Shown here: piece by piece, positions 3,840 through 58,328 of the stretch
Layout of the letters: each line of letters starts with the position of its first letter
Numbering within the stretch: the first letter of the stretch is position 1
Source of the DNA: a virus
DNA length: 64,000 bases
Strand: one strand, 5' to 3'
Virus record (IMG/VR): IMGVR_UViG_3300045988_067909
Program-made: the position numbers and the translations under genes
Notes under the pieces: model-generated
Databases searched by the model: none
Told to the model about the DNA's origin: nothing
What the model saw: only the letters and a program-made list of their open reading frames with translations

Positions 3840-4358
3840 ATGTTAGTATCAATGATAGTTGCACATGACTTAAATAACGGTATAGGTAAAGATGGTAAGC
3901 TATTATGGTATATACCTAAAGACCTAAAACATTTTAAGAAAACAACTCTAGGTTGTACTGTAGTCATGGGTAGAAAAACCTATGAATCTCTTCCTAACGC
4001 ATTACCACATAGAGAAAATTGGATTCTCACTAATGATAAATCATATGTACCTAAACAACGATTCAATGACAAGGTTAAAGTATTTCATTCTAAAGAAGAA
4101 GTACTAGCTGAAGCTGAACGTCTTAGAAAGGCTAATATATTTATCATTGGTGGTGGAGAAATCTATAAATTATTCTTAGATGATGCTACTGATATTATAG
4201 CTACAGTGGTTAATGAGAAGCTACCAGCTGACACTTTCTTTCCTAAACTAAAACGAGGTGAATGGGAGAAAGTAAAAGTTGTAAATGAATCTGAAGTTGT
4301 AGACCGTAGACATTATAGTTTTAAGTTTGTAACTATGAAACGAAAGGAGAGAAAATAA
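3840..4358 (+). CDS. frd: dihydrofolate reductase
   Basis: N-terminal MIVAHDLNNGIGKDGKLLW..LKHFKKTTLG..VVMGRKTYESLP..IIGGGEIY matches the DHFR fold signature (compare E. coli FolA MISLIAA..NAMPW..VIMGRHTWESI..VIGGGRVY). Confidence 0.85.
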   Translation: MLVSMIVAHDLNNGIGKDGKLLWYIPKDLKHFKKTTLGCTVVMGRKTYESLPNALPHRENWILTNDKSYVPKQRFNDKVKVFHSKEEVLAEAERLRKANIFIIGGGEIYKLFLDDATDIIATVVNEKLPADTFFPKLKRGEWEKVKVVNESEVVDRRHYSFKFVTMKRKERK

Positions 4359-6524: not shown

Positions 6525-6533
6525 AACAAAATT

Positions 6534-6570
6534 ACAGGTACTGGAATTTCCAGTACCTGTATATTTTTTA
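6534..6570 (+). terminator. intrinsic terminator
   Basis: ACAGGTACTGGAATTTCCAGTACCTGT perfect hairpin followed by ATATTTTTT. Confidence 0.7.
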
Positions 6571-6571
6571 T

Positions 6572-6634
6572 AATCGTAAAACTCTTTTTTTTTAGTTGTA
6601 TACTATAATGGTAATATCATGGTTATATATTTAT
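6572..6634 (+). promoter_or_regulatory. conserved phage promoter-like module copy 1 (ATCGTAAAACT + T-run + AGTTGTATACTATAATGGTAATATCATGGTTATATATTTA)
   Basis: Near-identical sequence recurs at at least 15 sites, always between a terminator and an RBS/ATG. Confidence 0.65.
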
Positions 6635-6661
6635 TAGTTAATTAGAAAGGAGATATATATC

Positions 6662-7183
6662 ATGTATTTACAACAATTAACAGAAACTTCCGGGGTCGAA
6701 ATCACACATTGGTTTGAAAATACTTTCTTTATTTCTAACAATGTTACAAAACGTGGCATCATTGATGTTGGTGATGGTGGTAAAGTCGAACGTGCTTCTT
6801 TAGAATACTTTTCCAATTATATTGGAGCGGTCGAAATTGTTAAATGGGTACCGAATTCCAATAGTGAAATTGAGGAGTATTTTACCAAGTATCTCGCAAT
6901 GGTGATTGCTATGGATCACGATATCGAAAGTGATCCAAACAAAATTGAAGCGATGAAAACATTGCTCAATTTGCACGGTACTTTATTCATTGAAAACGAT
7001 ACTACAGTATTTAAGTTTAAAGACTTAGGCACTATTGCACCGTTTGAAGATGATAGCTGGTACGTCTGTCCTGATGGTGCAGACAATGTACTTTGTAAGA
7101 CTTTAGCCGAAGCGGCTAAAGTGATGGCAGAGTATAAAGCAAAATTAGAAGAGAAACCTGTTCTCTTCAAAAACATTATCTAA
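6662..7183 (+). CDS. hypothetical protein (cassette gene)
   Basis: 173 aa ORF with AAAGGAG RBS; visibly more G/C-rich than flanking DNA; bounded by promoter module and terminator. Confidence 0.6.
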   Translation: MYLQQLTETSGVEITHWFENTFFISNNVTKRGIIDVGDGGKVERASLEYFSNYIGAVEIVKWVPNSNSEIEEYFTKYLAMVIAMDHDIESDPNKIEAMKTLLNLHGTLFIENDTTVFKFKDLGTIAPFEDDSWYVCPDGADNVLCKTLAEAAKVMAEYKAKLEEKPVLFKNII

Positions 7184-7193
7184 AAAGAATATC

Positions 7194-7237
7194 ACAGGAT
7201 AGGACATTGTCCTATCCTGTATACTTTTCTTTTTTCT
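7194..7237 (+). terminator. intrinsic terminator
   Basis: ACAGGATAGGACATTGTCCTATCCTGT hairpin + ATACTTTTCTTTTTTCT. Confidence 0.7.
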
Positions 7238-7320
7238 ATGATACTGAGGGTATAATGATAATATCGTAAAACTGTTTTTTTAGTTGTATAATATAATGGT
7301 AATATCATGGTTATATATTT
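7238..7320 (+). promoter_or_regulatory. promoter-like module copy 2 (elements A and B both present: CTATGATACTGAGGGTATAATGATAATATCGTAAAACT + TAGTTGTATAATATAATGGTAATATCATGGTTATATATTT)
   Basis: Sequence identity to copies 1, 4, 5, 6, 9. Confidence 0.65.
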
Positions 7321-7346
7321 AGTTAATTAGAAAGGAGATATATATC

Positions 7347-7805
7347 ATGAAATTCGTAATAGTACCTTGGTGGCAAAATGAAGACTATCTTGTAGTAAGA
7401 GCTATCCCTACTACGAAAGTAGAAAGGAACTCTTTAGAGATTCTAAAGTATGACATACAAGACGACTATGGTTATTGGGAACCACAAAAATTAGGGTTTG
7501 AGTTAGGCACTAAATACCTAAACGCCCTAGGATACCCAAACCTAACATTTTGGGGTGAGGATAGTCCGATAGAATGTCGGTTTGACCCAAGAGAACCAGA
7601 GGGTTATCAGTCTTACGATGTCACTGCTGCACCTCGAGATGTCGAGGTAATGGTTGCAGGCTATCGTTTACTAGGTCGTCATCGCAAGGTTGCCCGTATA
7701 CTTAAGGAAGTAAAAAGAAAAAATAAAGTATTCAATGAAGAAATTCTTCGTCATATGGATACTTGGGGATACCAAATTCCATACAGCACAGAGGAAGAAG
7801 AGTAG
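7347..7805 (+). CDS. hypothetical protein, paralog of 11434-11844
   Basis: 152 aa; shares AIPTTKVER and AGYRLLGRHRKVARILK blocks with the 136-aa ORF at 11434; G/C-richer than surroundings. Confidence 0.6.
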   Translation: MKFVIVPWWQNEDYLVVRAIPTTKVERNSLEILKYDIQDDYGYWEPQKLGFELGTKYLNALGYPNLTFWGEDSPIECRFDPREPEGYQSYDVTAAPRDVEVMVAGYRLLGRHRKVARILKEVKRKNKVFNEEILRHMDTWGYQIPYSTEEEE

Positions 7806-7840
7806 GGTTTCCCTACTCTTCTCTCTTTTCTTTTTTTCTT
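7801..7840 (+). terminator. intrinsic terminator
   Basis: AGTAGGGTTTCCCTACT hairpin followed by long CT/T-run. Confidence 0.6.
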
Positions 7841-7847
7841 AGAGTAA

Positions 7848-7893
7848 TAAAAATTATGGTTATATAATATAGCTATGACTCATTGGTTATATT
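7848..7893 (+). promoter_or_regulatory. promoter-like module copy 3 (variant with two TGGTTATAT cores)
   Basis: TATGGTTATATAATATAGCTATGACTCATTGGTTATATTTAATTT precedes RBS AAAGGAGG. Confidence 0.5.
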
Positions 7894-7914
7894 TAATTTA
7901 AAGGAGGATTTAAA

Positions 7915-8382
7915 ATGAGTGGATTTATTGTTAGTGAAATTAAGAGTACAGAGCGTACTAAAAGGGACTTGTTTATAGATTTTCATAATTTTATAGGCTG
8001 TCTACCGTTAGGCACACATCAAAAGAAGTCAGTAGATAATGCTAGAAATAAACGTGTTGAAATTATCATAAGTGATACTGAAGATGAGGCTACTTTGATC
8101 ATAAAAGATCTTAATGTGGCTATAGAATATCGTCTATATGATAGACCGTTTGGTTTTAAAACCATTAAAGTAGATGATATTATTTATAATAATTTTGATA
8201 ACCTACATGAGATTGATACAATGGTAATAAAAAAGATAGTAGATAGTTTATTATATTGGGCTGCTAGTGCTTCTGATGGTAAACCGTATATTTTACCTAT
8301 GCATATATTTGATATGGCTACACGTATATATCAAGCATGTATCTTTATTGATTTTGCTAGACCGTTGGATGAGATTAATTAG
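7915..8382 (+). CDS. hypothetical protein
   Basis: 155 aa ORF with AAAGGAGG RBS. Confidence 0.55.
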   Translation: MSGFIVSEIKSTERTKRDLFIDFHNFIGCLPLGTHQKKSVDNARNKRVEIIISDTEDEATLIIKDLNVAIEYRLYDRPFGFKTIKVDDIIYNNFDNLHEIDTMVIKKIVDSLLYWAASASDGKPYILPMHIFDMATRIYQACIFIDFARPLDEIN

Positions 8383-8394
8383 GAGGATAAAACT

Positions 8395-8895
8395 ATGAGT
8401 GAAATTAAAGATCTTTATGATGGCAAGTATCATCTTGTAAACAATGAGATTCTAAAGTACTTAAATAAGTTCTTTGGAAGTTTTAGTCCACTAGCTATTG
8501 GTGGAGAAACACCTGAGGGTGTAGATATTGAACCACCGATGGAAATAGTGAAAACTATGGAAACTAATTATGGCAATTGTAAGTGTACAATGAATCTATT
8601 AGACTTGAATATGAAATTCCATCTACTAGAAGTAATGGATGCTGAAACTAAAAGATTCACTTACATCTTTTATGCTTTGGAATTACCTACTGGTATCCAA
8701 GCAGGACAATTCTCTATTGGTGCTATAAAAGCAGAAATATTACGTGAAGCATTAGAGTATGTATGGAAGACTCTAATGTCTAGTTCTAAGTATAATGATA
8801 TTGGTATTGATAGTACAGATGCATATGAATTGCATTCTATTATTGATTATATCTATTATACTAAAACAGTAACTAGTTATGGATTCGATTTTTAA
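8395..8895 (+). CDS. hypothetical protein
   Basis: 166 aa ORF with TAGGAGG RBS. Confidence 0.55.
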   Translation: MSEIKDLYDGKYHLVNNEILKYLNKFFGSFSPLAIGGETPEGVDIEPPMEIVKTMETNYGNCKCTMNLLDLNMKFHLLEVMDAETKRFTYIFYALELPTGIQAGQFSIGAIKAEILREALEYVWKTLMSSSKYNDIGIDSTDAYELHSIIDYIYYTKTVTSYGFDF

Positions 8896-8908
8896 TAAGG
8901 GGTGTATT

Positions 8909-9409
8909 ATGAGTGAGTTTTTAAGAATAGCTAAAGAAGAAGATTTTGTATATGAAAAATATATACCAAGATTATTTAACGACTTCTTTAGTCGTGTACC
9001 ATTTGACAATGAAGATTTCAATTACTTCATCAAGAAGAATAGAATTGTAAATATACTAGAATCGAGTAATAACTATATCGGTTATGGCATTCATTTACAA
9101 GATATCAATGTATATATTGTATTACAGTTCAAATGTGTTGATGGATACATTACTGATACTAGAGTGGATTATTTTGTATTAGATCCATTTGGTAAAAATC
9201 CAGTAACTGTATTGAATAGGTATGCCTATAAATTAGATAGGGATATCGTTCGTGCTATATTTGATGATATGGCTAAGCTAATGGCAGAATTCAAATTTGA
9301 TTATCCTGAACACAATAGAATAAACGATAAGGAATTCTTTGACTTAGCGCAAGACTATTTTTATTTAGCAACTAAGGATGCTATTTATAATCCACAGGAG
9401 GAATATTAA
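8909..9409 (+). CDS. hypothetical protein
   Basis: ATG at 8909 preceded by AAGGGGTG; in frame with longer 8879 ORF. Confidence 0.5.
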   Translation: MSEFLRIAKEEDFVYEKYIPRLFNDFFSRVPFDNEDFNYFIKKNRIVNILESSNNYIGYGIHLQDINVYIVLQFKCVDGYITDTRVDYFVLDPFGKNPVTVLNRYAYKLDRDIVRAIFDDMAKLMAEFKFDYPEHNRINDKEFFDLAQDYFYLATKDAIYNPQEEY

Positions 9410-9410
9410 G

Positions 9411-10106
9411 ATGAACTGGAACTATACTATTGATGAAACTAAAAATAATAGCCCATTAGACTTGGCTAAAGAGATTATAGAACTCGTTAGCCCTGATGGT
9501 TATGGGCATTATAATCAGTATGGTGGATATGAAAATATTCATTATGGAGAAGTAAATATCACACGCAATACCAAATTGCATGAATTAGTATATGCTTCTA
9601 AAAATTATGGTGATATCATTGTCAAAGTAATTGAGCGTAATAATGTTGATGTATGCTATAATACAGTATGTGATATTATGATAGGTGATAAGCAATTCTT
9701 AGTTGATAGTGATCCTAAAGATGAAAGTGAGCGTTATTTCTCTTTCAACTATATGACTTGTGATCCAGAAACTGAAGAATATGTAGAAATCTCTGATACA
9801 GAATGCTTAGTAAAAGATTTAAAATATCTTTGTGAAGCATTGTTAGATATGGTAGAAACTAGTGGTGTAAAACATGGGTATCGGATTAATACTTACATGC
9901 TAAAGTACACACTAGACTATATCCAAATGGTTGAAGATGGTGAATTCGTTATAGATGATTTCTTCAACCATAATGATAGCTATTATTATAGTGCACATAC
10001 AAGAGCACATTATTTTGACGACCCAGAACCAAGACCAAACCCATATAAAGATCCTGAGTTTGATGAAGAATTCTGGGAAGCAGTAGAAAATAGAATGGAA
10101 AAATAA
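9411..10106 (+). CDS. hypothetical acidic protein
   Basis: ATG at 9411 preceded by CAGGAGGAATATTAAG; Asp/Glu/Tyr-rich C-terminus. Confidence 0.55.
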   Translation: MNWNYTIDETKNNSPLDLAKEIIELVSPDGYGHYNQYGGYENIHYGEVNITRNTKLHELVYASKNYGDIIVKVIERNNVDVCYNTVCDIMIGDKQFLVDSDPKDESERYFSFNYMTCDPETEEYVEISDTECLVKDLKYLCEALLDMVETSGVKHGYRINTYMLKYTLDYIQMVEDGEFVIDDFFNHNDSYYYSAHTRAHYFDDPEPRPNPYKDPEFDEEFWEAVENRMEK

Positions 10107-10130
10107 TTATTATTTAGGAGGACTTTAACA

Positions 10131-10703
10131 ATGAAATTAGAAAACTTAGCATTTAACAAAACTTTAGGATTTGAACCAAAAGTAGAAGATATCAATGTAC
10201 CTAAACAAGGTGGTGGTACACTTAGAATGAAATCCACATCTAGAGAGTTTAGTTTCAATGGATGTCTATATACATGCAAGGTGATAATGGATTCTGATGA
10301 AAATGTTAAATTGATCAGATTGGCATATTCTAAGATTCCTACGGCACCAGTAAGAACACACATTGAGCTTACTGATATAGTAAGTAATGATGATGTCAAG
10401 AAATACTTTGAAACTATCTTACTAAGACTTAAAGTTTCTATAGATCAAATCTATAGAGAAACTAAAGCTGAAGGTGTTTTTGAATACATCAGGGATTTAG
10501 GTGGTATCTTAAAAATAGTAGACGGTAAAGTATATTTTGAATTGGATGGATTCAATATTAAGATTAAGCTAAATAGCAATGAAGAATGGGAAACTTACTT
10601 AAATGATAAGCAAATTTCCACTCATAAGACATTGCGTGATGCTGCTTATGATATAAACGATATTCGCAAAAAGAACTTTGCATTAATCCCTAATATTGTT
10701 TAG
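10131..10703 (+). CDS. hypothetical protein
   Basis: 190 aa ORF with TAGGAGG RBS. Confidence 0.55.
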   Translation: MKLENLAFNKTLGFEPKVEDINVPKQGGGTLRMKSTSREFSFNGCLYTCKVIMDSDENVKLIRLAYSKIPTAPVRTHIELTDIVSNDDVKKYFETILLRLKVSIDQIYRETKAEGVFEYIRDLGGILKIVDGKVYFELDGFNIKIKLNSNEEWETYLNDKQISTHKTLRDAAYDINDIRKKNFALIPNIV

Positions 10704-10713
10704 ATAAACTAAT

Positions 10714-10757
10714 ACAGGATAGTACAATGTACTATCCTGTATACTTTTCTTTTTTCT
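10714..10757 (+). terminator. intrinsic terminator
   Basis: ACAGGATAGTACAATGTACTATCCTGT + ATACTTTTCTTTTTTCT (same architecture as 7194). Confidence 0.7.
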
Positions 10758-10846
10758 ATGTTACTAAGGGTATATTTGTAGTTTCGTAAAACTCAATTAT
10801 TTCAGTTATATACTATAATGGTAATATCATGGTTATATTATTTATT
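10758..10846 (+). promoter_or_regulatory. promoter-like module copy 4 (A+B)
   Basis: CTATGTTACTAAGGGTATA..TTCGTAAAACT..TTCAGTTATATACTATAATGGTAATATCATGGTTATATTATTTATT. Confidence 0.65.
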
Positions 10847-10866
10847 ATACACAGGAGGAATATATC

Positions 10867-11271
10867 ATGACTACAAACACAAACACAGCAACTTTATCTT
10901 TAGTTTCTTGCCCAGAAGAAATGATGGCTAATTACTTTAGCCGTATTTCTGCTGAAAAGGCTGAAGGTATGAAGAAAGAGATTTTTGCTAAGTCTCAATC
11001 TGAACTAGAATCTCTTGTTAAAGCACTTAACGAGAATTTTAGTGCAGATACTTTTAATAGTGCTTTAGGTGATAGTGTGTCTGAAGAGTTATTTAATGAC
11101 TCGGACAACCTAAGACGCCATCTAAAGGACGAAGCTATTTCCACTATTAGTAAAATCCGTTCTTTCGTTAAGAACGGAAATAAGCAAGCACTATCTATCC
11201 TAGATTGGATGGAAGGGCTAGCTGTAGAACAAGCTAGTGATATCGTTAGAATCATTGAAGATAGACGATAA
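10867..11271 (+). CDS. hypothetical protein
   Basis: 134 aa ORF with CAGGAGGAA RBS. Confidence 0.55.
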   Translation: MTTNTNTATLSLVSCPEEMMANYFSRISAEKAEGMKKEIFAKSQSELESLVKALNENFSADTFNSALGDSVSEELFNDSDNLRRHLKDEAISTISKIRSFVKNGNKQALSILDWMEGLAVEQASDIVRIIEDRR

Positions 11272-11277
11272 AAGATA

Positions 11278-11320
11278 AGGGTGGAGACAATGTCTCCACC
11301 CTACTCTTATTTACTTTTTC
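11278..11320 (+). terminator. intrinsic terminator
   Basis: GGGTGGAGACAATGTCTCCACCC hairpin + T-rich tail. Confidence 0.65.
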
Positions 11321-11412
11321 TATGATACTGGTGGTATAGTACGTATATCGTAAAACTCTTTTTTTTAATTGTATACTATAATGGTAATATTCATGGTTAT
11401 ATATTTATTATT
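11321..11412 (+). promoter_or_regulatory. promoter-like module copy 5 (A+B)
   Basis: CTATGATACTGGTGGTATAGTACGTATATCGTAAAACT + T-run + AATTGTATACTATAATGGTAATATTCATGGTTATATATTTATT. Confidence 0.65.
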
Positions 11413-11433
11413 TATACAGAAAGGAATATCATC

Positions 11434-11844
11434 ATGAAACTTATAAAACGTCAATTCGAAGAAAATGCTTATGTATCCACAGTAGCCATCCCAACTACAG
11501 AGGTGGAGCGCAAAATGATCCAAGCATTAAAGTACGATTTGATTTCTGAGGAGCCAGAAATTTGTAACTGGCACCCAGAATGGTTAGGCGAAAGCCTAGC
11601 CATTGAATATGCTAATGCGCTTGGACATAGTTGGGTTGACTTCTATGGTACTGATGAGTACATGGTAGTAGTTGATCCAGAGGGCACGTATGTTATTACT
11701 GCAACCCCTAGTAATTTAGAAACATTGATTGCAGGTTATCGCCTACTTGGTCGCCATCGTAAGGTGGCAATGATCTTGAAAAAGATCAAGAAGCTTGGTA
11801 TTGAAGACATGGTATCAAACATGACACCAGGCCGTCAAGCATAA
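11434..11844 (+). CDS. hypothetical protein, paralog of 7347-7805
   Basis: 136 aa; AIPTTEVER and AGYRLLGRHRKVAMILK shared with 7347 ORF; G/C-richer than surroundings. Confidence 0.6.
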   Translation: MKLIKRQFEENAYVSTVAIPTTEVERKMIQALKYDLISEEPEICNWHPEWLGESLAIEYANALGHSWVDFYGTDEYMVVVDPEGTYVITATPSNLETLIAGYRLLGRHRKVAMILKKIKKLGIEDMVSNMTPGRQA

Positions 11845-11849
11845 AAATA

Positions 11850-11895
11850 TAGGGTAGAGACAATGTCTCTACCCTAATCTTATTTTATTTTTTTA
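11850..11895. terminator. bidirectional intrinsic terminator between convergent genes
   Basis: AGGGTAGAGACAATGTCTCTACCCT palindrome flanked by A-run upstream and T-run downstream; sits between + gene ending 11844 and thyA exon 2 ending 11893. Confidence 0.65.
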
Positions 11896-12204
11896 AACAG
11901 CAACTACCATAGGGAGTTTACCCATATGGAAGTAGTTATCCACAATTACGCTATCTGGAGTAAAGTCATAGAAGTCTTGTACACTACCATTAATAACCAA
12001 TCTAGGCTCTTGTGTTGGTAGATTACCAGACTCATAACGTTTAATTTGTTCTTGTAAAGCTTCTATATGATTCTCATATATATGCATATTATTTACGATA
12101 TGAGTAAACTTACCAGGTTTAAGTTTACATACATGAGCTATCATATGAACTAGCATAGCGTATTGTGTTGTATTGAACGGGATTCCTAATCCCGTATCCC
12201 CCGA
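11893..12204 (-). CDS. thyA: thymidylate synthase, exon 2 (C-terminal 103 aa)
   Basis: Translation SGDTGLGIPFNTTQYAMLVHMIAHVC..GKLPMVVAV matches ThyA C-terminal half (compare T4 td ..[20 protein letters not shown]..); in frame with exon 1 across a 287-nt gap. Confidence 0.85.
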   Translation of the reverse strand, partial: SGDTGLGIPFNTTQYAMLVHMIAHVCKLKPGKFTHIVNNMHIYENHIEALQEQIKRYESGNLPTQEPRLVINGSVQDFYDFTPDSVIVDNYFHMGKLPMVVAV

Positions 12205-12491
12205 CAAAGTGTTCTAGTATGGTCGTTAATCATACTACGTTCTCTTATGAACTGCTATATATTTCTATATAGATCAGACTATATCACGATCCGTCCCTGG
12301 TAGGACCCCAAACGTTTCCACCCACTTAGGTGTACTCTACTCACTTACAGATATACTGTATGCTTTCGATAGTCGTTGAACACAAATCTATTATAGATTC
12401 TTCGTAAATGATTATCGTATAAGTAAATTATACGACGTTCCATTTTTAGTAAGGTTATTCGATGTATATTACTATACAAAGGCGCCCGTTA
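12205..12491 (-). other. group I self-splicing intron in thyA (no intron ORF)
   Basis: ThyA reading frame is broken exactly at the conserved ..LYQR|SxD.. position; upstream exon ends in U (CAG CGT), intron ends in G immediately before TCG GGG; spliced product reads LQR-SGDTG in frame; 287 nt with stops in all frames; candidate internal guide GCGC immediately inside the 5' end of the intron. Confidence 0.7.
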
Positions 12492-12980
12492 ACGCTGGAG
12501 GAGTATGCAGTTTAATTTATCTTCTTGAACATCCCATAGTGTCTCATAAGCACATGGTTGTAGTGCCATATCTGGGAGATCTTCTATGTTCCAGAGGGTA
12601 ACTATCATACGTCTGCTATCTGGATCAGTTTTAATAGTATTGATAAGATTGTCTAGTTGATTGTATTTAGCAATCTGATATCCATAGGCTTTGCCTATAG
12701 TACCATCTTCTCTCATCCATTCATCCCATACATGACAACCCATCTTTTGTAGCTCACGTACATCATTGGATTGCATTTGCCAGATCCATAATAGTTCTTT
12801 AAGAGCAGTCTTAGCTGCTACAAACTTAGATGATAAGATAGGGAATTCTTCTTGTAAATCAAACTGCATGATTTGGTGTGGTAACTTATATGTCGGAATA
12901 CCTGTACGGTTATTACTATATGTACCGTGGTCTAAGATATTCTTTACAATATCAATATACTGCTTATCTGCGGTTCTCAT
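12492..12980 (-). CDS. thyA: thymidylate synthase, exon 1 (N-terminal 163 aa)
   Basis: [100 protein letters not shown] closely parallels ThyA N-terminal half. Confidence 0.85.
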
Positions 12981-13055
12981 TTATATACCTCCTGTGGAAT
13001 TAAAAAAAATATATTTATATTAGGGTGTGAACTCTATATTAAATTACAATGTGGT

Positions 13056-13125
13056 GATATCGTAAAACTTGATTATTTCAGTTATATACTATAATGGTAA
13101 TACAATGGTTATATATTTATTTAGT
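13056..13125 (+). promoter_or_regulatory. promoter-like module copy 6
   Basis: GATATCGTAAAACTTGATTATTTCAGTTATATACTATAATGGTAATACAATGGTTATATATTTATTTAG; the same intergenic region also carries the thyA upstream region on the opposite strand. Confidence 0.65.
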
Positions 13126-13150
13126 TAATTAATCAAGGAGGATATTAACC

Positions 13151-13546
13151 ATGGCACTTTTACACGATTTAGAAAATTTAAGTGTGTTATCTTATAATGA
13201 AATTGTTGAAGGTATTAACAATTTCAAGCATACAATGAAAACATACTTAGATGAAACACAAGACATTGTAGACTTATTACTTTTCTTAAGTGATAGTATT
13301 GGGATGAGTATCCCGGTATTTTCAGATGAAGAAAAAGTAAAAATGTTTACCTTGGGTTTTGCATATTCCACGGCTAATATCGCATTATCTATTTTGGCAA
13401 AAAACAGTGCTATCACATTTGAAGAGCATTGTAATCTTGCTGATTTAGTCTTCGATTATCGCAGTGAGTTTGCAGAACTTGTTGCAACAAAAATTATTGA
13501 AGCATTTGAACGCAAATGTGAAGAGAATAAGAATAATGTAGCATAA
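13151..13546 (+). CDS. hypothetical protein
   Basis: 131 aa ORF with CAAGGAGGA RBS. Confidence 0.55.
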   Translation: MALLHDLENLSVLSYNEIVEGINNFKHTMKTYLDETQDIVDLLLFLSDSIGMSIPVFSDEEKVKMFTLGFAYSTANIALSILAKNSAITFEEHCNLADLVFDYRSEFAELVATKIIEAFERKCEENKNNVA

Positions 13547-13551
13547 GTTTA

Positions 13552-13595
13552 TAGGGGTGGTTTATCCACCCCTAATACTTAATTATTTTTTTTTG
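13552..13595 (+). terminator. intrinsic terminator
   Basis: AGGGGTGGTTTATCCACCCCT hairpin + AATACTTAATTATTTTTTTTT. Confidence 0.7.
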
Positions 13596-13598
13596 TAA

Positions 13599-13653
13599 TC
13601 AGGATTTGAATTATATAATATAATTACGATACAGTGGCTATATTATATTTTAG
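13599..13653 (+). promoter_or_regulatory. promoter-like module copy 7 (variant: ..TTGAATTATATAATATAATTACGATACAGTGGCTATATTATATTTTAG)
   Basis: Shares TATAATATAAT and TGGnTATAT cores with the consensus; precedes RBS AAAGGAG. Confidence 0.5.
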
Positions 13654-13667
13654 AAAGGAGATTTAGA

Positions 13668-13838
13668 ATGAGACGAAAGTATAGTTTTGATAATTTTATG
13701 GATATACTTCCATTAATTATCACAATACTAATAGTAACTGTAGTATGGGTTTACATGGACCTAGATTATGACAGACTATTTCATATGATAGCTTGTGTAA
13801 CTGCTGGGTTTATAGTAAGTATAGTATTAGATAGGTAA
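13668..13838 (+). CDS. small membrane protein (56 aa)
   Basis: ATG with AAAGGAG RBS; hydrophobic core LPLIITILIVTVVWVY; below the 60-aa cut-off of the supplied ORF track. Confidence 0.45.
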   Translation: MRRKYSFDNFMDILPLIITILIVTVVWVYMDLDYDRLFHMIACVTAGFIVSIVLDR

Positions 13839-13867
13839 TTTATTTAAAAGAAGGGATGATTAAAAGA

Positions 13868-13993
13868 ATGGAAACTTTATTTAATGGTATTAGATGGTTT
13901 GTAGATGCAAACTATATGATTATTGGTATGCTAGTTATAGCTACTATGATTGCTTTTGTAGAGACTACGAAAGTTGGTGATGATAATGAGTAA
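13868..13993 (+). CDS. small membrane protein (41 aa)
   Basis: ATG with GAAGGGATG upstream; hydrophobic MIIGMLVIATMIAFV. Confidence 0.35.
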   Translation: METLFNGIRWFVDANYMIIGMLVIATMIAFVETTKVGDDNE

Positions 13994-14552
13994 GATTCAA
14001 TACATTCTTCTTACATTACTATCTGGTGGGTCTGGTACATATATTATGCTACATAGCGATCAAGACCCTTATTGGCTAAGCAGAACCATTATGTGTTTCA
14101 CATTGGTCGTACTATTCTGCTTTGCTTGGTATCACAATAGATACGTTGATAATATTCGTCTTATACGTGTGACTGCTGATATGCTGGTGAACCATAGCAA
14201 CGAAACACCAGAAACGGTTAAAGACAGAATTGAACAAGCGAAAACAGATGAAACATTATCAGACGTTAAACGTGCAGAAGTTATTAATGGTCTTGAACAA
14301 GTTTTGGAGTTGTTCAAACTATTCAATACTATGCCAACTATGGAAGAGATTACTAAAAGAAGTAATAATAATTGGTATATGGTTATAATCTTAACATTAA
14401 TTCTACTTATTAATGTATCATGGTTAAATGATACGTTCGCTATGATTAGTACATTAATATTAATGGTAGCATACATTGTGCTCCAGGTTCGAAGTATTAA
14501 ATTAGTAAGAGGTAAACCTGATGGAAAAGGAAAAACGTCTCTTTGGAAGTAA
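13980..14552 (+). CDS. membrane protein
   Basis: ~190 aa, multiple hydrophobic segments; start uncertain (ATG 13980/13986, TTG 13974). Confidence 0.5.
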   Translation: MIMSKIQYILLTLLSGGSGTYIMLHSDQDPYWLSRTIMCFTLVVLFCFAWYHNRYVDNIRLIRVTADMLVNHSNETPETVKDRIEQAKTDETLSDVKRAEVINGLEQVLELFKLFNTMPTMEEITKRSNNNWYMVIILTLILLINVSWLNDTFAMISTLILMVAYIVLQVRSIKLVRGKPDGKGKTSLWK

Positions 14553-14934
14553 AATCTTCCTAGAAATTTTCTCTTCAGAGCTTATTACATTGATATGCTC
14601 TAATATATTAGTATCTATATTAGTGTATAAAGAAATATATGCATTGGCTTTTATTAATATAGTAATAGGCGGGTATATCATTTCTGTACAAAGTGGAGAT
14701 ATTTCTTCCAACAAGTTCATTATTAACCATTTAGAAGATGGGCTTGTTAAATTTAATGAGCTTACTGGTGGTAAGATTAAAACCAATCTTCTTAATAATA
14801 CTAGTAAGCGTATTGCTATCGAAGAAGCATTAAAGAATGCTGTCAATGGTAGTGGAGAGGTATTTGTAGTTGCTTTATTGGTTACTATAGTGGATATTAT
14901 AGTTTTAGTGTTTAAAGGGTTAGGGGCGTTCTAA
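14521..14934 (+). CDS. membrane protein
   Basis: 137 aa with three hydrophobic stretches. Confidence 0.5.
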   Translation: MEKEKRLFGSKIFLEIFSSELITLICSNILVSILVYKEIYALAFINIVIGGYIISVQSGDISSNKFIINHLEDGLVKFNELTGGKIKTNLLNNTSKRIAIEEALKNAVNGSGEVFVVALLVTIVDIIVLVFKGLGAF

Positions 14935-14935
14935 A

Positions 14936-15097
14936 ATGCTAACCATTTTGATGTATATAATCTTACCAGTGTTAATGGCTTTTACTTTTATGCTAGCGTT
15001 GTATAAAATACTTCATAAGAAATATGAGTATATATTTATTATGGTAATGCTAGCTGGGTTGTTCCACTGGTGGATTACATACCACGGAGGTATTTAA
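14936..15097 (+). CDS. small membrane protein (53 aa)
   Basis: ATG 2 nt after previous stop; MLTILMYIILPVLMAFTFMLALY.. hydrophobic. Confidence 0.4.
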   Translation: MLTILMYIILPVLMAFTFMLALYKILHKKYEYIFIMVMLAGLFHWWITYHGGI

Positions 15098-15164
15098 TGC
15101 TAAGCTGAGTATAGTCATTGACTATACTCAGTTTCTTTATGTTTATTATAGTGAGAGGTGTATA

Positions 15165-15497
15165 ATGAAACTTATAATGTGTCTTATAGCTTTCCATGCT
15201 ATAATGACAGTTGGTGCTGATTGGGCTATAAACTATCAGCAAGACTTATATAGAATTCTATTAGTATATGTCCCAGGCATATTAGGTTCTATAGGGATAA
15301 TACTATATATGAATATTAGGCTTAGATTAGATGAAATAGCTGATCATATAGATAAGAGCAAGAAAGCTAGAATAGACTATGCTATGGTTACTAAGACTTG
15401 TCATAACTATGGAAGAAAGCTTATGGTATTTCTAGTAGCAATATATATTCTATGGGTGATTGAGATGATTGTAGTTAATATTATAGGGATGGTATAA
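15165..15497 (+). CDS. membrane protein
   Basis: 110 aa, hydrophobic N- and C-terminal segments, RBS GAGAGGTG. Confidence 0.5.
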   Translation: MKLIMCLIAFHAIMTVGADWAINYQQDLYRILLVYVPGILGSIGIILYMNIRLRLDEIADHIDKSKKARIDYAMVTKTCHNYGRKLMVFLVAIYILWVIEMIVVNIIGMV

Positions 15498-15498
15498 G

Positions 15499-15858
15499 AT
15501 GGAAAGAATAGCACAAGAGATAATTAAGAGAACTGGATATGTTATTGGTATAGTAGTTATACTACTGCTGATAGTGTTAAATGTAAAAACATTCCCATCA
15601 TTTAGGGAATGGTATGCATTTATATTTATGCCAGGTGCTATATTCTTAATACTGATGACTTATAACTTTATAACTTATAGTATGTCTAAATACTCAATGA
15701 ATGGTAATACTGAACAAGAGATATTACGTAATAGAGCTAAGTCTAAGCAGACTTGTATACGTTTCTCTCGTGGTATTACTGTATATGGTGTTGGTATAGT
15801 CTTATGGTATATGCTAGCCTTCATAGGGTCTATTATAAACAATCTACCACAATTCTAA
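15499..15858 (+). CDS. membrane protein
   Basis: 119 aa, 3 predicted TM segments; start abuts previous stop. Confidence 0.5.
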   Translation: MERIAQEIIKRTGYVIGIVVILLLIVLNVKTFPSFREWYAFIFMPGAIFLILMTYNFITYSMSKYSMNGNTEQEILRNRAKSKQTCIRFSRGITVYGVGIVLWYMLAFIGSIINNLPQF

Positions 15859-15870
15859 GACAAAAGATAT

Positions 15871-15912
15871 CCCCATATAGGCATTGCCTATATGGGGTAT
15901 ATTATTTTTTAT
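15871..15912 (+). terminator. intrinsic terminator (TATAGGCATTGCCTATA family)
   Basis: CCCCATATAGGCATTGCCTATATGGGG + TATATTATTTTTTAT. Confidence 0.7.
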
Positions 15913-15959
15913 AAGTAAACTGTTTTATGATTGCATACTATAATTGTGTATGGTAGATA
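15913..15959 (+). promoter_or_regulatory. promoter-like module, degenerate copy 8
   Basis: AGTAAACTGTTTTATGATTGCATACTATAATTGTGTATGGTAGATA aligns with TCGTAAAACTGTTTTTTTAGTTGTATAATATAATGGTAATA. Confidence 0.4.
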
Positions 15960-16039
15960 CAGCTAGTAACGTTAGCTGTATCTAAATATAACCATACACT
16001 TGTAGACATAAGTCTACGGGTCGAAAGGAGGTGACTCCT

Positions 16040-16228
16040 ATGACTAGAGAACGAGAATCTATTCTCGCTATCTGTGCTCAGATTCCTGAGCTCGAAGCTA
16101 GAAGGCTAGCTTCTGAAAGCATCCCGGTTGGGACTGAATCTGGTGAAAGATTACCAGACAAAGATACTCCAATCGTCCACATGGTACCGCCATGGAGGAT
16201 GCGTCTATACCACAAATATGGGGTATAG
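16040..16228 (+). CDS. small hypothetical protein (62 aa) in a G/C-rich island
   Basis: ATG 8 nt after AAAGGAGG; surrounding ~270 bp markedly more G/C-rich than the rest of the window; followed by terminator. Confidence 0.4.
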   Translation: MTRERESILAICAQIPELEARRLASESIPVGTESGERLPDKDTPIVHMVPPWRMRLYHKYGV

Positions 16229-16241
16229 ATAAGGAGTATAC

Positions 16242-16287
16242 ATGGGTAAGGATATAGAACATTCTTACCCATGTATTATTTTTTATA
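16242..16287 (+). terminator. intrinsic terminator
   Basis: CATGGGTAAGGATATAGAACATTCTTACCCATG + TATTATTTTTTAT. Confidence 0.65.
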
Positions 16288-16310
16288 CTTATTTGTTAGT
16301 GATTTAGTAA

Positions 16311-16372
16311 ATCGTAAAACTTAGTATTTTCAGTTGTATAATATAGTGGTAATAGAATGGTTGTATTATTTA
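16311..16372 (+). promoter_or_regulatory. promoter-like module copy 9
   Basis: ATCGTAAAACTTAGTATTTTCAGTTGTATAATATAGTGGTAATAGAATGGTTGTATTATTTAG. Confidence 0.6.
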
Positions 16373-16399
16373 GTATTAATTGAAAAGGAGATATTAACC

Positions 16400-16687
16400 A
16401 TGATTACTCTATTAAAAAAGTATTATTTAGACCTTACTTTTGTATGCCTAGTTGTATTTGGCTTTGTAGTTGCTACAAAGCTAGTATATTTAACAGGTAT
16501 AGACTGGTGGAATTGGGAGATTCTCCCAGTTTCCGCTAGTCCAGCTCTAAGAGAGACTGCTGAAAACTACATGACAATTGCCCAATTAGAGGTGATTGGT
16601 ATGTATGTTTTCATGGGGTTACTTGCCCCATTCGTTGCGACTATGTATGTAGCATATCGCAACGATCCTGAACTTCATCAAAAGTAA
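16400..16687 (+). CDS. small membrane protein
   Basis: ATG at 16400 preceded by AAAGGAG (the longer 16334 frame lacks an RBS); two hydrophobic segments. Confidence 0.5.
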   Translation: MITLLKKYYLDLTFVCLVVFGFVVATKLVYLTGIDWWNWEILPVSASPALRETAENYMTIAQLEVIGMYVFMGLLAPFVATMYVAYRNDPELHQK

Positions 16688-16693
16688 TAAGTT

Positions 16694-16741
16694 GGGATAC
16701 AGGTATTAAGCCTGTATCCCTTATCTTATTTTATTTTTTTT
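16694..16741. terminator. bidirectional intrinsic terminator
   Basis: GGGATACAGGTATTAAGCCTGTATCCC with T-run on + side; convergent minus gene ends at 16740. Confidence 0.6.
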
Positions 16742-17768
16742 AGAATCCATCATCGAATGATGCGGAACTACCGTTTCTAGCCTGAGAGATTAATGGTGCT
16801 TCTTCTATACGACCATCATTACCAATAACCACTAATGGGAAGTCCATATTAGTATTGGAGTTTCTAGCTGTACCAGTAGCGAAGTTAATACGCATAGCTT
16901 CAAGCAAGAAGTCGTCTGGTAGACTTACATTTTCCACATATTGTTTTGTAGCTAAGTTCATCATCCTAAAGTACTTAGCATCTGTACGTCTATCATATAC
17001 TACAACGACTTTAGTATTAGGGTTAGATTCCATAATCATACGATTTTGCTCTGGAGTGAACTCTTGAGATGGGGATAATTGAGTTCTATCAGATGGAGGA
17101 ATCAAATCAAAGCTTTGTGCACGCTGAGCGATAAAGGATGGGAAGTCCATACCCTGGATAGCTTGTGGTGGAACAAAACCAGTGGATTCCAATTGTTGTC
17201 TTGGAGCATCCAATAAGTTTTTGTATAGACCCATGATAGCTGCATTATCATCACCAGCATCAATCTTAAGATCTTTAACACGAGACAATTCCAATTTAGC
17301 TGCTGTAGTGATATTATCATTGATTGCTTTAATAGCACTTAGCTTAGTACTAGTGATAGTAGAGATTACACTAGCCATATCAGTCATATATTGATATTTA
17401 CCTTTAAGACGAGATGACATACGTAGTTGATTAAACTCAGTTTTAAGTTCATCTTGTAATACACCTAGCTGAGATACAGTCTCTCTAAGCATATCATTAG
17501 TTTCATCATACATCTCAGCAATAGGTACATTAGTAGTTAAGATAGCTGCTTTTTCTTGTCTAACTTCACCATCTTCACCATTCAAAGGTTTAACCTTACG
17601 TGGACGACCACGTCGTTTAGTTGGAACAACTAACTCTTTAGGTGGCTCTTCTAATTTGATACTATTATTATCTCTCATACCACCAAATAACTTTTTCTTA
17701 GGCGGAGTAACTTCAACTTTGAGTTCTTTATTGTCCACATCTGTGGCTGTAGTAAACATACTTTCCAT
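16740..17768 (-). CDS. hypothetical protein with AT-hook-like motif
   Basis: 342 aa; PTKRRGRPRKVKP (GRP core of AT-hook) in N-terminal third; the only minus-strand gene in the 6.5-18.3 kb region. Confidence 0.55.
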   Translation of the reverse strand: MESMFTTATDVDNKELKVEVTPPKKKLFGGMRDNNSIKLEEPPKELVVPTKRRGRPRKVKPLNGEDGEVRQEKAAILTTNVPIAEMYDETNDMLRETVSQLGVLQDELKTEFNQLRMSSRLKGKYQYMTDMASVISTITSTKLSAIKAINDNITTAAKLELSRVKDLKIDAGDDNAAIMGLYKNLLDAPRQQLESTGFVPPQAIQGMDFPSFIAQRAQSFDLIPPSDRTQLSPSQEFTPEQNRMIMESNPNTKVVVVYDRRTDAKYFRMMNLATKQYVENVSLPDDFLLEAMRINFATGTARNSNTNMDFPLVVIGNDGRIEEAPLISQARNGSSASFDDGF

Positions 17769-17852
17769 ATTTTTATTTCCTTTCTTTATAAGGCTTCATA
17801 TTGGTTTTTATATAGACGTTAACTTCGTAATAACTAACAGGAGGAATTATCT

Positions 17853-18275
17853 ATGAAAAGTCAACTAATCTATGATATAAACAAGAAGTTTATTGTAACC
17901 ATTCTAAAGAATATAAAAAACAACCCTAATGATATTGTCTTTGAATTTAAAAACTTCTATCTTTCTATTGATGTAAATAAAGAAAGAGAACAAGCTTCTT
18001 TTGTAATAACTGATAAAGATGGTAAAGAGATTATATCATTCTTTAAGCACTACATGAAGTATACAGCATATAGCAACTGTATGCCAATAGAAGACTTCTT
18101 AAGTGACCATACTACTAATGAAGCATTAAAGGATTTTATATTTGATGGTGGTAAAGCTATCAAATATCTATACGGTGGTGGTCCTGGCTATAGGATTATA
18201 ACCAGAGAGTTATACTTGCTATTAAATGAGCATGCTAAAGCGATAACCAAAGATAATTTCAGTTATATACTATAA
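17853..18275 (+). CDS. hypothetical protein
   Basis: 140 aa, AACAGGAGG RBS; its last codons are formed by a degenerate copy of the promoter module. Confidence 0.55.
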   Translation: MKSQLIYDINKKFIVTILKNIKNNPNDIVFEFKNFYLSIDVNKEREQASFVITDKDGKEIISFFKHYMKYTAYSNCMPIEDFLSDHTTNEALKDFIFDGGKAIKYLYGGGPGYRIITRELYLLLNEHAKAITKDNFSYIL

Positions 18276-18297
18276 TGGTGATACTGTGGTAGTTATT
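18257..18297 (+). promoter_or_regulatory. promoter-like module, degenerate copy 10 overlapping a gene 3' end
   Basis: TTCAGTTATATACTATAATGGTGATACTGTGGTAGTTATTATC aligns with TTCAGTTGTATACTATAATGGTAATATCATGGTTATATATTTA. Confidence 0.4.
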
Positions 18298-18488
18298 ATC
18301 TTATCTAACACACCCCACAGGTGCATAAACTCTAATACCCAACTATACTCCCTTTGGGTACTCTCCTTTAAAATAAATAATATAACCATTGAAAATGAAC
18401 GGAAAAATTATTTATGCACCTATCTATAATATTCCCTATACAATAATGAATATAATCACCCCTCTACCACAGTATCACATTGAACTTC

Positions 18489-18536
18489 GGCAAGACACTC
18501 CCTTTCGGTGTCTTGCCACCCCTTATTTATTTTTTG
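18489..18536 (+). terminator. stable hairpin + T-run in the 320-bp leader upstream of DNA polymerase
   Basis: GGCAAGACACTCCCTTTCGGTGTCTTGCC followed by ACCCCTTATTTATTTTTTGCC. Confidence 0.5.
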
Positions 18537-21053: not shown

Positions 21054-21140
21054 TAATGTATTTTAGGCTATGGCTCTCTGGGTCATAGCCTTTAAATGCT
21101 GAAACATCCTACTAATATGCTACTTTTTTCAAGGAGGTAA

Positions 21141-23441: not shown

Positions 23442-23478
23442 CCCCTATATAGGCATTGCCTATATAGGGATTCTTTTT
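23442..23478. terminator. bidirectional terminator (TATAGGCATTGCCTATA family)
   Basis: CCCCTATATAGGCATTGCCTATATAGGG + ATTCTTTTTAG; A-run on the other side serves the minus-strand tube gene. Confidence 0.7.
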
Positions 23479-26513: not shown

Positions 26514-26613
26514 ATGTTTTCCTCCTTTAAAATCAAAAAATTTTACAGGTTAGTCATATTATAATATTACTAAACTTTTACATCTATGTTGGATATAAGC
26601 CTTATAGGGTGTA

Positions 26614-27429: not shown

Positions 27430-27472
27430 GATTGTATATTATAACTGTATACATAATTGGTTATATTTAATT
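27430..27472 (+). promoter_or_regulatory. promoter-like module copy 11 (B element only)
   Basis: GATTGTATATTATAACTGTATACATAATTGGTTATATTTAATTT preceded by hairpin ACAGGGTTTTTGTAAACCTGT and T10 run. Confidence 0.55.
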
Positions 27473-27488: not shown

Positions 27489-27989
27489 ATGAATATCACA
27501 AGTCCAACTTTAAGACAATTAGCTTACAGTGCAATTGACGACAGAGAGAATCTAAGAACATTGAACGCATTAGACCGTGGTAATATGCCATTTAGAGTGA
27601 CATATAATCAAAACGGCTTAATTGAAATCAGTGTCGGAAACGATGTACGGAAGTTAGACTGTAGCACAGACTTCCGATGCGTCTGTCGTACTATCACTAT
27701 TGATAGCGAGCATTATTACGCAATTAAATGTGTAACTATGTTTGTAAACAAAGAAAGCCATAACCAAGATACGGTTATAGCTATTACAGTAACAGAGTAC
27801 GTAAAAGATTTATTTCAAGAGGATATAGAAAAGATTATAAATAATCTAAAATCTATTGAATCTGAGACAGAAACGATTGGTCGTTTCGATATTACTTATA
27901 ATAAAGGTAATATCATTCTAGAAGACCAAGTTAAATCTTTGACTTATAGATTGGACCATATAGTCCAAACTATATTGGATCTTAAATAA
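27489..27989 (+). CDS. hypothetical protein (plus-strand cassette inserted between minus-strand virion genes)
   Basis: 166 aa ORF with TAAGGAGGAAAC RBS, own promoter module and own terminator. Confidence 0.55.
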   Translation: MNITSPTLRQLAYSAIDDRENLRTLNALDRGNMPFRVTYNQNGLIEISVGNDVRKLDCSTDFRCVCRTITIDSEHYYAIKCVTMFVNKESHNQDTVIAITVTEYVKDLFQEDIEKIINNLKSIESETETIGRFDITYNKGNIILEDQVKSLTYRLDHIVQTILDLK

Positions 27990-27997: not shown

Positions 27998-28040
27998 CCC
28001 AGTATAGGCATTGCCTATACTGGGGTCCTTTGTTTTTTAT
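27998..28040 (+). terminator. intrinsic terminator (TATAGGCATTGCCTATA family)
   Basis: CCCAGTATAGGCATTGCCTATACTGGG + GTCCTTTGTTTTTTAT. Confidence 0.7.
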
Positions 28041-39146: not shown

Positions 39147-39172
39147 CACACCTTTATATTATATAACCATAA
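39147..39172 (-). promoter_or_regulatory. minus-strand copy of promoter-module core (GAGTTTTATGGTTATATAATATAAAGG)
   Basis: Reverse complement of 39147-39172 contains AAACTC-like + TGGTTATATAATATAA; ~95 nt upstream of the highly expressed 38233-39069 gene. Confidence 0.4.
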
Positions 39173-51960: not shown

Positions 51961-52003
51961 AATGTATATTATAGTAGTAGTAATATACATGGTTTATTTT
52001 ATA
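51961..52003 (+). promoter_or_regulatory. promoter-like module copy (B element with 3-nt insertion)
   Basis: AATGTATATTATAGTAGTAGTAATATACATGGTTTATTTTAT aligns with AGTTGTATACTATAATGGTAATATCATGGTTATATATTTAT. Confidence 0.5.
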
Positions 52004-58266: not shown

Positions 58267-58328
58267 GCCTATTTGCCTCCTTTAAGGGTTATTTTGGTTA
58301 TATATCATAATGTTGAGGTGATAGATTT

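Follow-up and report, generated by a model that had tools for sequence, protein, structure and literature searches.

The 64,000-nt stretch of viral DNA held as IMG/VR record IMGVR_UViG_3300045988_067909 (the window) carries, mainly between 6.5 and 18.3 kb, a repeated intergenic module whose AT-rich core, TTRTATAMTATAAT, lies ~50–65 nt 5' of an ATG. There are good grounds, short of certainty, for reading this module as an early promoter of the kind assigned to the virion RNA polymerase (RNAP) of phage AR9, set within cassettes that resemble the composite terminator stem-loop/early-promoter cassettes (PeSL) of T4-type phages. It is a known kind of element, here with a structured RNA nearby that is complementary to the leader that the units share.

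In the proposed scheme, TTRTATAMTATAAT would be read by a multisubunit RNAP packaged in the virion (vRNAP). Upstream, the module would include a T-rich tract near -20 and CGTAAAACT near -35; downstream, it would include a leader of ~45–50 nt with a conserved TGGTTATAT and a strong Shine-Dalgarno (SD) sequence. A long perfect hairpin terminator would end the preceding unit, the outcome being a dense series of early units, each with its own start and stop, coding for small ORFan proteins. The same promoter would also precede the beta' gene of the non-virion RNAP (nvRNAP) and a DNA polymerase gene, while a second motif, AACA-N6-TA, found at structural and other genes, would presumably be read by the nvRNAP. 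Because they are repeated, the ~100-bp cassettes could double as homologous recombination points for gene gain, loss and replacement. The observations behind this scheme concern the repetition, position and orientation of the module, its likeness to AR9 at orthologous genes, its misfit to sigma-70, the late class, and the pattern of breakpoints among relatives.

The 13-nt core pattern TTRYATAHTATAD has 13 exact matches in the window, 12 of them on the + strand, as against 1.58 ± 1.26 expected, and none of 100 shuffles reaches 13; the 21-mer TTRTATAMTATAATGGTAATA, allowing up to 3 mismatches, has 8 matches (0.07 expected). Repeat finding gives a 93-nt family with copies at 6572, 7260, 10782, 11346, 13058, 16310, and 55815, and a 39-nt family that adds copies at 13600 and 18252. 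A position-weight matrix (PWM) scan of the window, as proposed in an earlier note on this DNA, was run with a core matrix spanning -19 to +1 and a cut-off of at least 12 bits. It yields 15 sites scoring 12–31.5 bits, with a clear gap to the background at 8.3 bits or less. All 15 lie between genes, none within coding sequence, and have the orientation of the gene that follows; 10 are in the 6.5–18.3 kb region. The predicted +1 is 14–92 nt from the start codon at 14 sites, the exception being 18280, at 334 nt. The candidate early-promoter cores are:

6596..6608, + strand: core TTGTATACTATAA; predicted +1 A6613; leader 6613–6661; gene 6662–7183; PWM 31.5 bits
7284..7296, + strand: core; predicted +1 7301; gene 7347–7805; pattern and PWM
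7860..7872, + strand: core TTATATAATATAG; predicted +1 G7877; five-gene unit 7915–10703; PWM 14.3 bits
10806..10818, + strand: core; predicted +1 10823; gene 10867–11271; pattern and PWM
11369..11381, + strand: core; predicted +1 11386; gene 11434–11844; pattern and PWM
13082..13094, + strand: core; predicted +1 13099; gene 13151–13546; divergent from thyA, without upstream terminator
13611..13623, + strand: core TTATATAATATAA; predicted +1 G13628; genes from 13668 to the terminator at 15105–15131
15931..15943, + strand: core TTGCATACTATAA; predicted +1 G15948; gene 16040–16228; pattern and PWM
16334..16346, + strand: core; predicted +1 16351; gene 16400–16687; pattern and PWM
18263..18275, + strand: core; predicted +1 G18280; overlaps the end of open reading frame (ORF) 17853–18275; structured RNA downstream
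27432..27444, + strand: core TTGTATATTATAA; predicted +1 27449; gene 27489–27989; pattern and PWM
39154..39166, - strand: core; predicted +1 39149; gene 38233–39069; late-type AACA-N6-TA also at 39100–39111
51962..51974, + strand: core ATGTATATTATAG inside AAATGTATATTAT; predicted +1 A51979; gene 52017–54143; PWM 12.0 bits
55839..55851, + strand: core; predicted +1 55856; gene 55905–56708; pattern and PWM
58298..58310, + strand: core TTATATATCATAA; predicted +1 G58315, the first base of the SD GAGGTG; gene 58329–59060; PWM 12.8 bits

All ten copies that the earlier note had listed for 6.5–18.3 kb are real by PWM and pattern matches, as are (at 12 bits or more) those before the genes at 27489, 52017, and 55905 and the minus-strand 38233 gene. 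Two others that it reported, 36205 and 37071, do not reach 5 bits, and the core at 58298–58310 was absent from its list. Its description of the units as mono- or dicistronic does not hold, the unit from 7915 having five genes. The second upstream element it had seen in three copies is present, and is included among the remaining parts of the module:

6573..6583, + strand: upstream element ATCGTAAAACT, at about -40 to -30, then the T-rich -20 tract
6620..6628, + strand: leader block 2, TGGTTATAT, at +8 to +16; other starts at 7308, 7884, 10830, 11394, 13106, and 27458
7226..7281, 10746–10801, and 11310–11365, + strand: second upstream element TTTCTTTTTTCTATGATACTGAGGGTATAATGATAATATCG, a repeat family of 3 copies

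The upstream element ATCGTAAAACT recurs in canonical modules, with a spacer that varies by 2–3 nt; TTTCTTTTTTCTATGATACTGAGGGTATAATGATAATATCG resembles a decayed leader (GATACTGAGG...), to judge by its sequence. In an alignment of 13 upstream regions, the invariant columns are all within TT.TATA.TATA. The earlier note had taken TGGTTATAT as the most invariant core, yet that block contains no invariant column; it is absent or shifted in the modules with +1 at 15948, 39149, 51979, 55856, and 58315, and with its position at +8 to +16 it is downstream of the predicted start and dispensable in several modules. The core from that source, written as TGGTTATATATTTA, has 7 matches at 2 mismatches where 3.8 are expected, which is not a significant enrichment, and it was dropped as an anchor. 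TATAAT or a one-off variant of it occurs within the core in nearly every copy, and the bases directly 5' of it (TTRTATAM) are invariant to the same degree as the hexamer. One further sequence, TATGTTTATTATAGTGAGAGG at 15135–15167 (+), upstream of the gene at 15165, is below the PWM threshold; it is like a T-variant of the early core and like the promoter AAATTTATATTAT of Staphylococcus phage MarsHill, and may be a weak or divergent early promoter.

The comparison that identifies the likely polymerase is with AR9, in which 41 early promoters of the form AAATATATATTAT-N6-G(+1) were mapped by differential RNA sequencing and primer extension (Lavysh et al. 2017, PMC5312081). AR9 early transcription needs no protein synthesis, and the early promoters are assigned to the injected virion RNAP; the late promoters have the form AACA-N6-TA/G (PMC5312081). 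In this late class AACA occupies -11 to -8 and TA/G occupies -1/+1, and the genes behind it are late or structural. An AT-rich motif of ~10 nt centred near -10 is found upstream of early operons in every RNAP-encoding jumbo phage (reviewed in PMC7598289), and in the early promoters of phiKZ and 201phi2-1 conservation reaches -20 and -30 (PMC11512511).

The window gene at 52017–54143 is 26% identical to AR9 g154, annotated as the C-terminal part of nvRNAP beta', and the g154 neighbourhood is kept around it, with the catalytic part of a DNA polymerase on the opposite strand and an SF2 helicase downstream. Upstream of the nvRNAP beta' orthologs, AR9 has AAATATATATTAT-TAACTT-G, Listeria phage LPJP1 AATTATATATTAT-ATATTT-G, MarsHill AAATTTATATTAT-ATAAGT-G, and the window AAATGTATATTAT-AGTAGT-A. 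The window sequence (51959–51971) agrees with the AR9 early consensus at 12 of 13 positions (9 of 13 for canonical copies), and is in register with the other modules (AGTTGTATACTAT-AATGGT-A). Two more genes are found behind the motif as orthologs or counterparts of AR9 genes: nvRNAP beta C-part (AR9 g089), whose ortholog is directly behind it in relative L060, and the exonuclease part of DNA polymerase (18614), which is the counterpart of AR9 g132, a gene annotated with an early promoter, and which is behind the 18263 copy by way of a leader. The gene at 47111–48790 matches an RNAP beta' N-part annotated as a virion RNAP subunit in AR9 (g145) and phage Madawaska, and has no early motif upstream by PWM. 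Of six AR9 early leaders inspected, two hold ATGTTATA(T/A)T, resembling block 2, which is too few for calling a shared motif. The earlier note's suggestion of promoters for a phage multisubunit RNAP is thus supported by comparison with the AR9 early class, except that it had misplaced the core in TGGTTATAT, downstream of the predicted start.

Exact matches to the pattern in IMG/VR gave 63 related loci on ~30 contigs of up to 267 kb, 70–97% identical to the window where alignable. With the window, these provide 116 non-redundant instances of the core, in which the start was assigned by the AR9 rule, consensus-N6-R(+1), or 7 nt after ...TAT. The predicted +1 is a purine in 115 of the 116 and -1 is T in 110, with G at -2 as the most informative unforced position. 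The +1/-1 rule holds in 22 of 23 divergent leader groups, whose 5' hairpins or closing helices begin 0–4 nt from the predicted +1 (for example GTATGGTAGATACAGC... and GTATAGGGAAATTCCCTATAC); the SD begins 2 nt after it in relatives L024, L057, and L031, and at the +1 itself at 58315. Transcription is accordingly inferred to start at the purine 7 nt after ...TAT, with T at -1. The leader of gene 16040 (15948–16042, +) has 92 nt and two hairpins and contains ATATAACCAT. Its first hairpin, in which a TGGT element pairs with ATATAACCATAC, starts at the predicted +1; its SD GGAGG can pair with CUCC just 5' of the AUG; and across more than 10 relatives the stems are kept while the loops vary.

AACA-N6-TA occurs 34 times in the window, ~2.5-fold below the 85.8 ± 9.5 expected; all of 100 shuffles had at least 34. 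Eighteen of the 34 are in the non-coding 10% of the sequence (counted at the motif start; 19 when counted at the +1 base). Among the other spacings from N2 to N10, 1–10 of 26–56 occurrences are intergenic, and the intergenic enrichment is seen at N6 only. AACA alone is also under-represented (428, against 629–727 for its permutations). AACA-N6-TA has been purged from coding sequence, and 12 copies lie 14–82 nt 5' of gene starts. Sites and genes include:

569–580, 21103–21114, 26579–26590 (-), 33744–33755 (-), 39100–39111 (-): AACA-N6-TA
43066–43077 (-), 51290–51301 (-), 58303–58314 (-), 59970–59981 (-): AACA-N6-TA
Genes behind it: SbcC (598), virion protein (21141), sheath (24354), 26614, 32969, 38233
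Further genes behind it: 42228, DNA polymerase (49209), 51445, 57511, 59098

The early module contains no AACA-N6-TA motif. Gene 38233 carries both motif classes, like the continuously expressed genes of AR9, and the two-class transcription programme of AR9 appears to have been kept. AR9 DNA contains deoxyuridine (dU), and its late-promoter enzyme requires uracil. Unlike AR9, the window phage probably has thymine in its DNA, because it encodes ThyA and dihydrofolate reductase (DHFR, gene at 3840–4358). This suggests that AACA-N6-TA has been kept in a phage with probable thymine DNA, which bears on how enzymes of the AR9 type read promoters.

Terminator-like hairpins number 27 between 6.0 and 18.7 kb, where 4.1 are expected. 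The cassette terminators form a family of their own: there are 22 perfect hairpins whose stems have 9 bp or more and whose loops have 3 nt, where ~0.5 are expected by chance. Thirteen of the 22 have the apex C-AWT-G, with a stem of exactly 12 bp in 11 of the 13, and several share the stem sequence TATAGGCAWTGCCTATA. These look like bidirectional terminators. Because their length and apex are uniform, recognition by a specific factor or polymerase is suggested. Predicted terminators include:

6533..6561, no strand: terminator hairpin, a perfect palindrome at a cassette end
7194–7220, 7796–7822, 10712–10742, 11278–11302, 11850–11876: further array terminators
15105–15131, 15871–15897, 16238–16276, 16694–16720: further array terminators
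7194–7220, 10712–10742, 15871–15897, 23443–23469, 27998–28024: C-AWT-G hairpins at gene ends
36590–36616, 48801–48827, 55787–55813, 59053–59079: further C-AWT-G hairpins

The earlier claim that every module follows a terminator is right for the array in general and fails at 13056, which faces the divergent thyA start, and at 18257, which overlaps the end of ORF 17853–18275. Among relatives, the cassette at 7236–7824 (gene 7347) is cleanly missing from L017, L007, L048, and L034, the alignment breaking at 7235/7825. At 6667, 10870, and 16042 the breakpoints are just past the ATG, so that the module is kept and the gene replaced; others are at 11305–11315, 13533–13550, and 16693. In total, 55 of 110 homology breakpoints (15 of 33 distinct groups) fall in module intervals, which make up 16% of the region. 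Relatives gain, lose, and swap genes at module boundaries. In T4-type phages, PeSL cassettes are found around small variable genes (PMC2839356, PMC4122927); with these, and with the 41 early promoters of AR9, the earlier description of the array as unusual for a phage early region was overstated.

Behind the 18263 core there is, by sequence inspection, no ORF directly downstream, and no minus-strand ORF behind the inverted leader described below. Instead, the predicted start is followed by:

18280..18535, + strand: candidate structured non-coding RNA or DNA-polymerase leader, ~255 nt, with a terminator hairpin whose T-run ends at 18535

The promoter probably drives this RNA and, by read-through, the DNA polymerase gene at 18614–20491. 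Eight homologs from three lineages (the window, L028, L042, L037, L039, L045, L006, and L049) have a common fold. Its closing helix, P1, has 13 bp (18280–18292 with 18465–18477) and begins at the predicted +1; two of its positions are compensated, and none is broken. A second long-range helix inside it, P2, has 8 bp, of which four positions are compensated. The terminator hairpin covaries as well, and compensatory changes are seen in 18 of 39 pairs overall. Rfam at the gathering threshold has no match over the whole window, and no family fits this RNA.

Between the helices, at 18362–18390, is a segment (CTCTCCTTT...ATATAACCATT) that is the reverse complement of early-leader block 2 plus the SD. 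It is partly invariant (TATATAACCATT after CTCCTTT), and its reverse complement, CAATGGTTATATTATTTATTTTAAAGGAGAG, reads as a consensus early leader. In the leaders themselves, conservation at +9 and +10 (GG) far exceeds that at +5 to +7. The anti-leader segment is predicted to be mostly unpaired (0.5–0.86, against 0.50–0.55 for the whole RNA), and its predicted duplexes with ten early leaders average -25.0 kcal/mol. A shuffled segment gives -10.5 ± 1.9 (minimum -17.9), and the leaders of 55 other genes a median of -12.0 (best -19.8). No lineage-specific co-variation of the anti-leader with leaders of the same contig was seen, own and foreign pairs being equal at -21 to -27 kcal/mol throughout. 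A scan of IMG/VR for more RNA homologs with the loose pattern CTCCTTT-N8-20-TATAACCATT gave matches dominated by unrelated contigs.

It is suggested, tentatively and with more doubt than confidence, that the centre of this RNA (CUCUCCUUU-N11-AUAUAACCAUU) base-pairs with the shared early leader (AUGGUUAUAU ... AAAGGAG) and acts on the early class as a whole. The anti-leader AUAUAACCAU would pair with AUGGUUAUAU in the leader; the RNA could stand alone as a small RNA (sRNA) that termination produces, or it could form the leader of the mRNA for DNA polymerase. As it accumulated it could shut off the translation or stability of early mRNAs, or it could act as a sensor of how much early mRNA is present and govern read-through to the DNA polymerase gene. 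With either role, the conservation of TGGTTATAT downstream of the start would be accounted for. The segment could also be a fossil inverted module kept for structural reasons, and, since the promoter core has GGTTATAT as its 5' half too, a function at the DNA level is possible.

If the modules are promoters, the main alternative to a phage enzyme is the host's: they would be strong sigma-A early promoters, as in T4 or SPO1, with TATAAT as the -10 and the T-tract as an UP-like element. This seems unlikely, if not negligibly so. The perfect TATAAT in the core might be used by host sigma-A, there is an A/T-rich tract upstream of it, and the probable thymine DNA (ThyA, DHFR) implies no base-modification bar to host RNAP. 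There is, however, no -35-like hexamer 16–18 nt upstream and no TG at -15/-14; the conserved CGTAAAACT is 20–22 nt from TATAAT, with variable spacing; and the invariance of the bases 5' of TATAAT is not explained by sigma-70 recognition. A sigma-70 scan gives 61 sites, below the 72 expected by chance, with none on the core, in agreement with the misfit to -35/-10 geometry noted earlier. A sigma-70-type start, ~3 nt further downstream, would cut into the SDs of short leaders, and there is no room for it because SDs begin 0–2 nt, and 5' helices 0–4 nt, from the AR9-type +1. Finally, at orthologous genes the motif can be aligned with the early promoter of the AR9 clade. The sequence by itself does not show which phage polymerase reads the motif, and the modules might instead be middle-class promoters of the nvRNAP, as the two motif classes at gene 38233 might be taken to indicate. 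This is a little less likely again: two nvRNAP subunit genes are directly behind the motif, and the enzyme cannot be required for making the first copies of itself; in AR9, reading of the homologous motif needs no new protein synthesis (PMC5312081); and the non-virion enzyme already has a class to read, the separate, AR9-like AACA-N6-TA.

Least likely, and very improbable, is that the repeat is no promoter at all, but a miniature mobile element, a recombination site, or an array of regulator-binding sites between genes. Breakpoints of gain, loss, and replacement do coincide with cassette boundaries, and the half-motif GGTTATAT, which the core and the leader share and which the RNA gene has in inverted form, could be where a protein binds. 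Yet all 15 sites are co-oriented, at a narrow range of distances to a start codon or the 5' end of the structured RNA; the core is homologous to a mapped promoter class; and recombination at repeated promoters is to be expected and is compatible with promoter function. A miniature transposon was considered and rejected, there being no terminal inverted repeats or target duplications and the orientation and spacing to genes being strict. Several points besides the TATAAT and the thymine DNA weigh against an AR9-type virion-RNAP promoter. At a conserved position the common local consensus, TATACTAT, departs from the TATATTAT of AR9, and +1 is mostly A in the window where it is G in AR9. Promoter activity, exact start, and reading polymerase are all derived by comparison, and the polymerase assignment in particular from 26–32% protein identity and likeness between AT-rich motifs. 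Common descent links many of the 116 instances, and their conservation exaggerates selection accordingly. Closing-helix complementarity in the window RNA extends 2 nt 5' of the predicted +1, so that the start is fixed only to within a few nucleotides.

Gene content, which also includes SbcC, a split DNA polymerase, a tail sheath, and a terminase, places the window in a distant AR9/PBS1-type jumbo phage. Megablast of 6.0–18.5 kb and 44–60 kb against a phage collection found no close relative, the sole matches being to a short stretch at ~12222–12342 beside an intron in thyA. This gene (11893–12980, -) is split by a group I intron at 12255–12501 (-; RF00028, 52.4 bits, E = 3.7e-12), seen in a focused E-value search only and below the Rfam gathering threshold. 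The intron is absent from relatives L005, L058, and L045, and L047 has ~830 nt more at that site. A tRNA scan found no tRNA, and Pfam found no families other than ThyA and DHFR for ten cassette proteins. No described host or isolate for the clade was found in the literature; the source samples of the related contigs are presumably human-associated (of Human Microbiome Project type), judging from patterns in their sample IDs. In L014 (IMGVR_UViG_3300007196_000046), from ~386 onward, a trimeric autotransporter adhesin of 594 aa, with a signal peptide, a YadA stalk, and a YadA membrane anchor, directly follows an early promoter. It points to a host that is diderm (perhaps among the Negativicutes or Fusobacteria, such as Veillonella or Fusobacterium) and to a surface protein that is expressed early. 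Two other window genes encode repetitive proteins: 29065–31842 (-), 925 aa, mostly imperfect ~13-aa repeats (a 39-nt DNA repeat in more than 20 copies, 29078–30464), and 62451–63491 (+), with an acidic D/E/T/G-rich repeat region (62530–63100).

An AR9-type assignment would extend the two-polymerase, two-promoter-class programme to a distant uncultured clade of ~260-kb phages, for which the early and late promoter models could be used in annotation. It would also mean that PeSL-style cassette shuffling is not confined to promoters of the host polymerase, and the anti-leader RNA, if true, would represent a new mode of phage control over a temporal class of genes.

Compared with known systems, the modules are most like the early promoters of AR9/PBS1. 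Both have an AT-rich element near -10, T at -1, and a purine at +1, 7 nt after ...TAT; both precede nvRNAP beta' C-part, nvRNAP beta C-part, and the exonuclease part of DNA polymerase; and both coexist with an AACA-N6-TA late class, some genes carrying the two together. Unlike AR9, the window has in TTRTATAMTATAAT G/A and mostly C in place of the A and T of AR9, and mostly A at +1; it adds a conserved -20 T-tract, CGTAAAACT at -35, and a conserved leader; its density is much higher (10 in 12 kb), with a terminator at almost every unit; it has ThyA and DHFR and probably no dU genome; and its promoters are predicted, whereas those of AR9 are mapped. The early promoters of phiKZ and 201phi2-1 are likewise long, AT-rich, and conserved at -10, -20, and -30, serve an injected multisubunit RNAP, and stand before small hypothetical genes; their sequence is unrelated, and the late promoters there are of TATG type rather than AACA-N6-TA. 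With sigma-70/sigma-A promoters the modules share a TATAAT hexamer upstream of genes, but they are without a -35 at 17 ± 1 or an extended -10 TG, have invariant bases 5' of the hexamer, and imply a start too near it. In T4-type PeSL, as here, small variable ORFs have between them repeated copies of a terminator hairpin combined with an early promoter, and insertions, deletions, and replacements end at the repeats; the PeSL promoter is a host sigma-70 early promoter, whereas that of the window is of phage-RNAP type, with a conserved leader and ribosome-binding site in addition. By this analogy the likeness is one of architecture and not of common descent, and the cassettes would be PeSL-like in behaviour and not members of that group. 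The RNA at 18280, for its part, is like the 5' untranslated region-derived and intergenic sRNAs of 201phi2-1 and phiKZ (PMC11512511) in being a short promoter-to-terminator transcript, as predicted, before a conserved gene and in its conserved structure; those are without proposed targets, whereas the RNA of the window holds sequence antisense to the leader of a whole promoter class.

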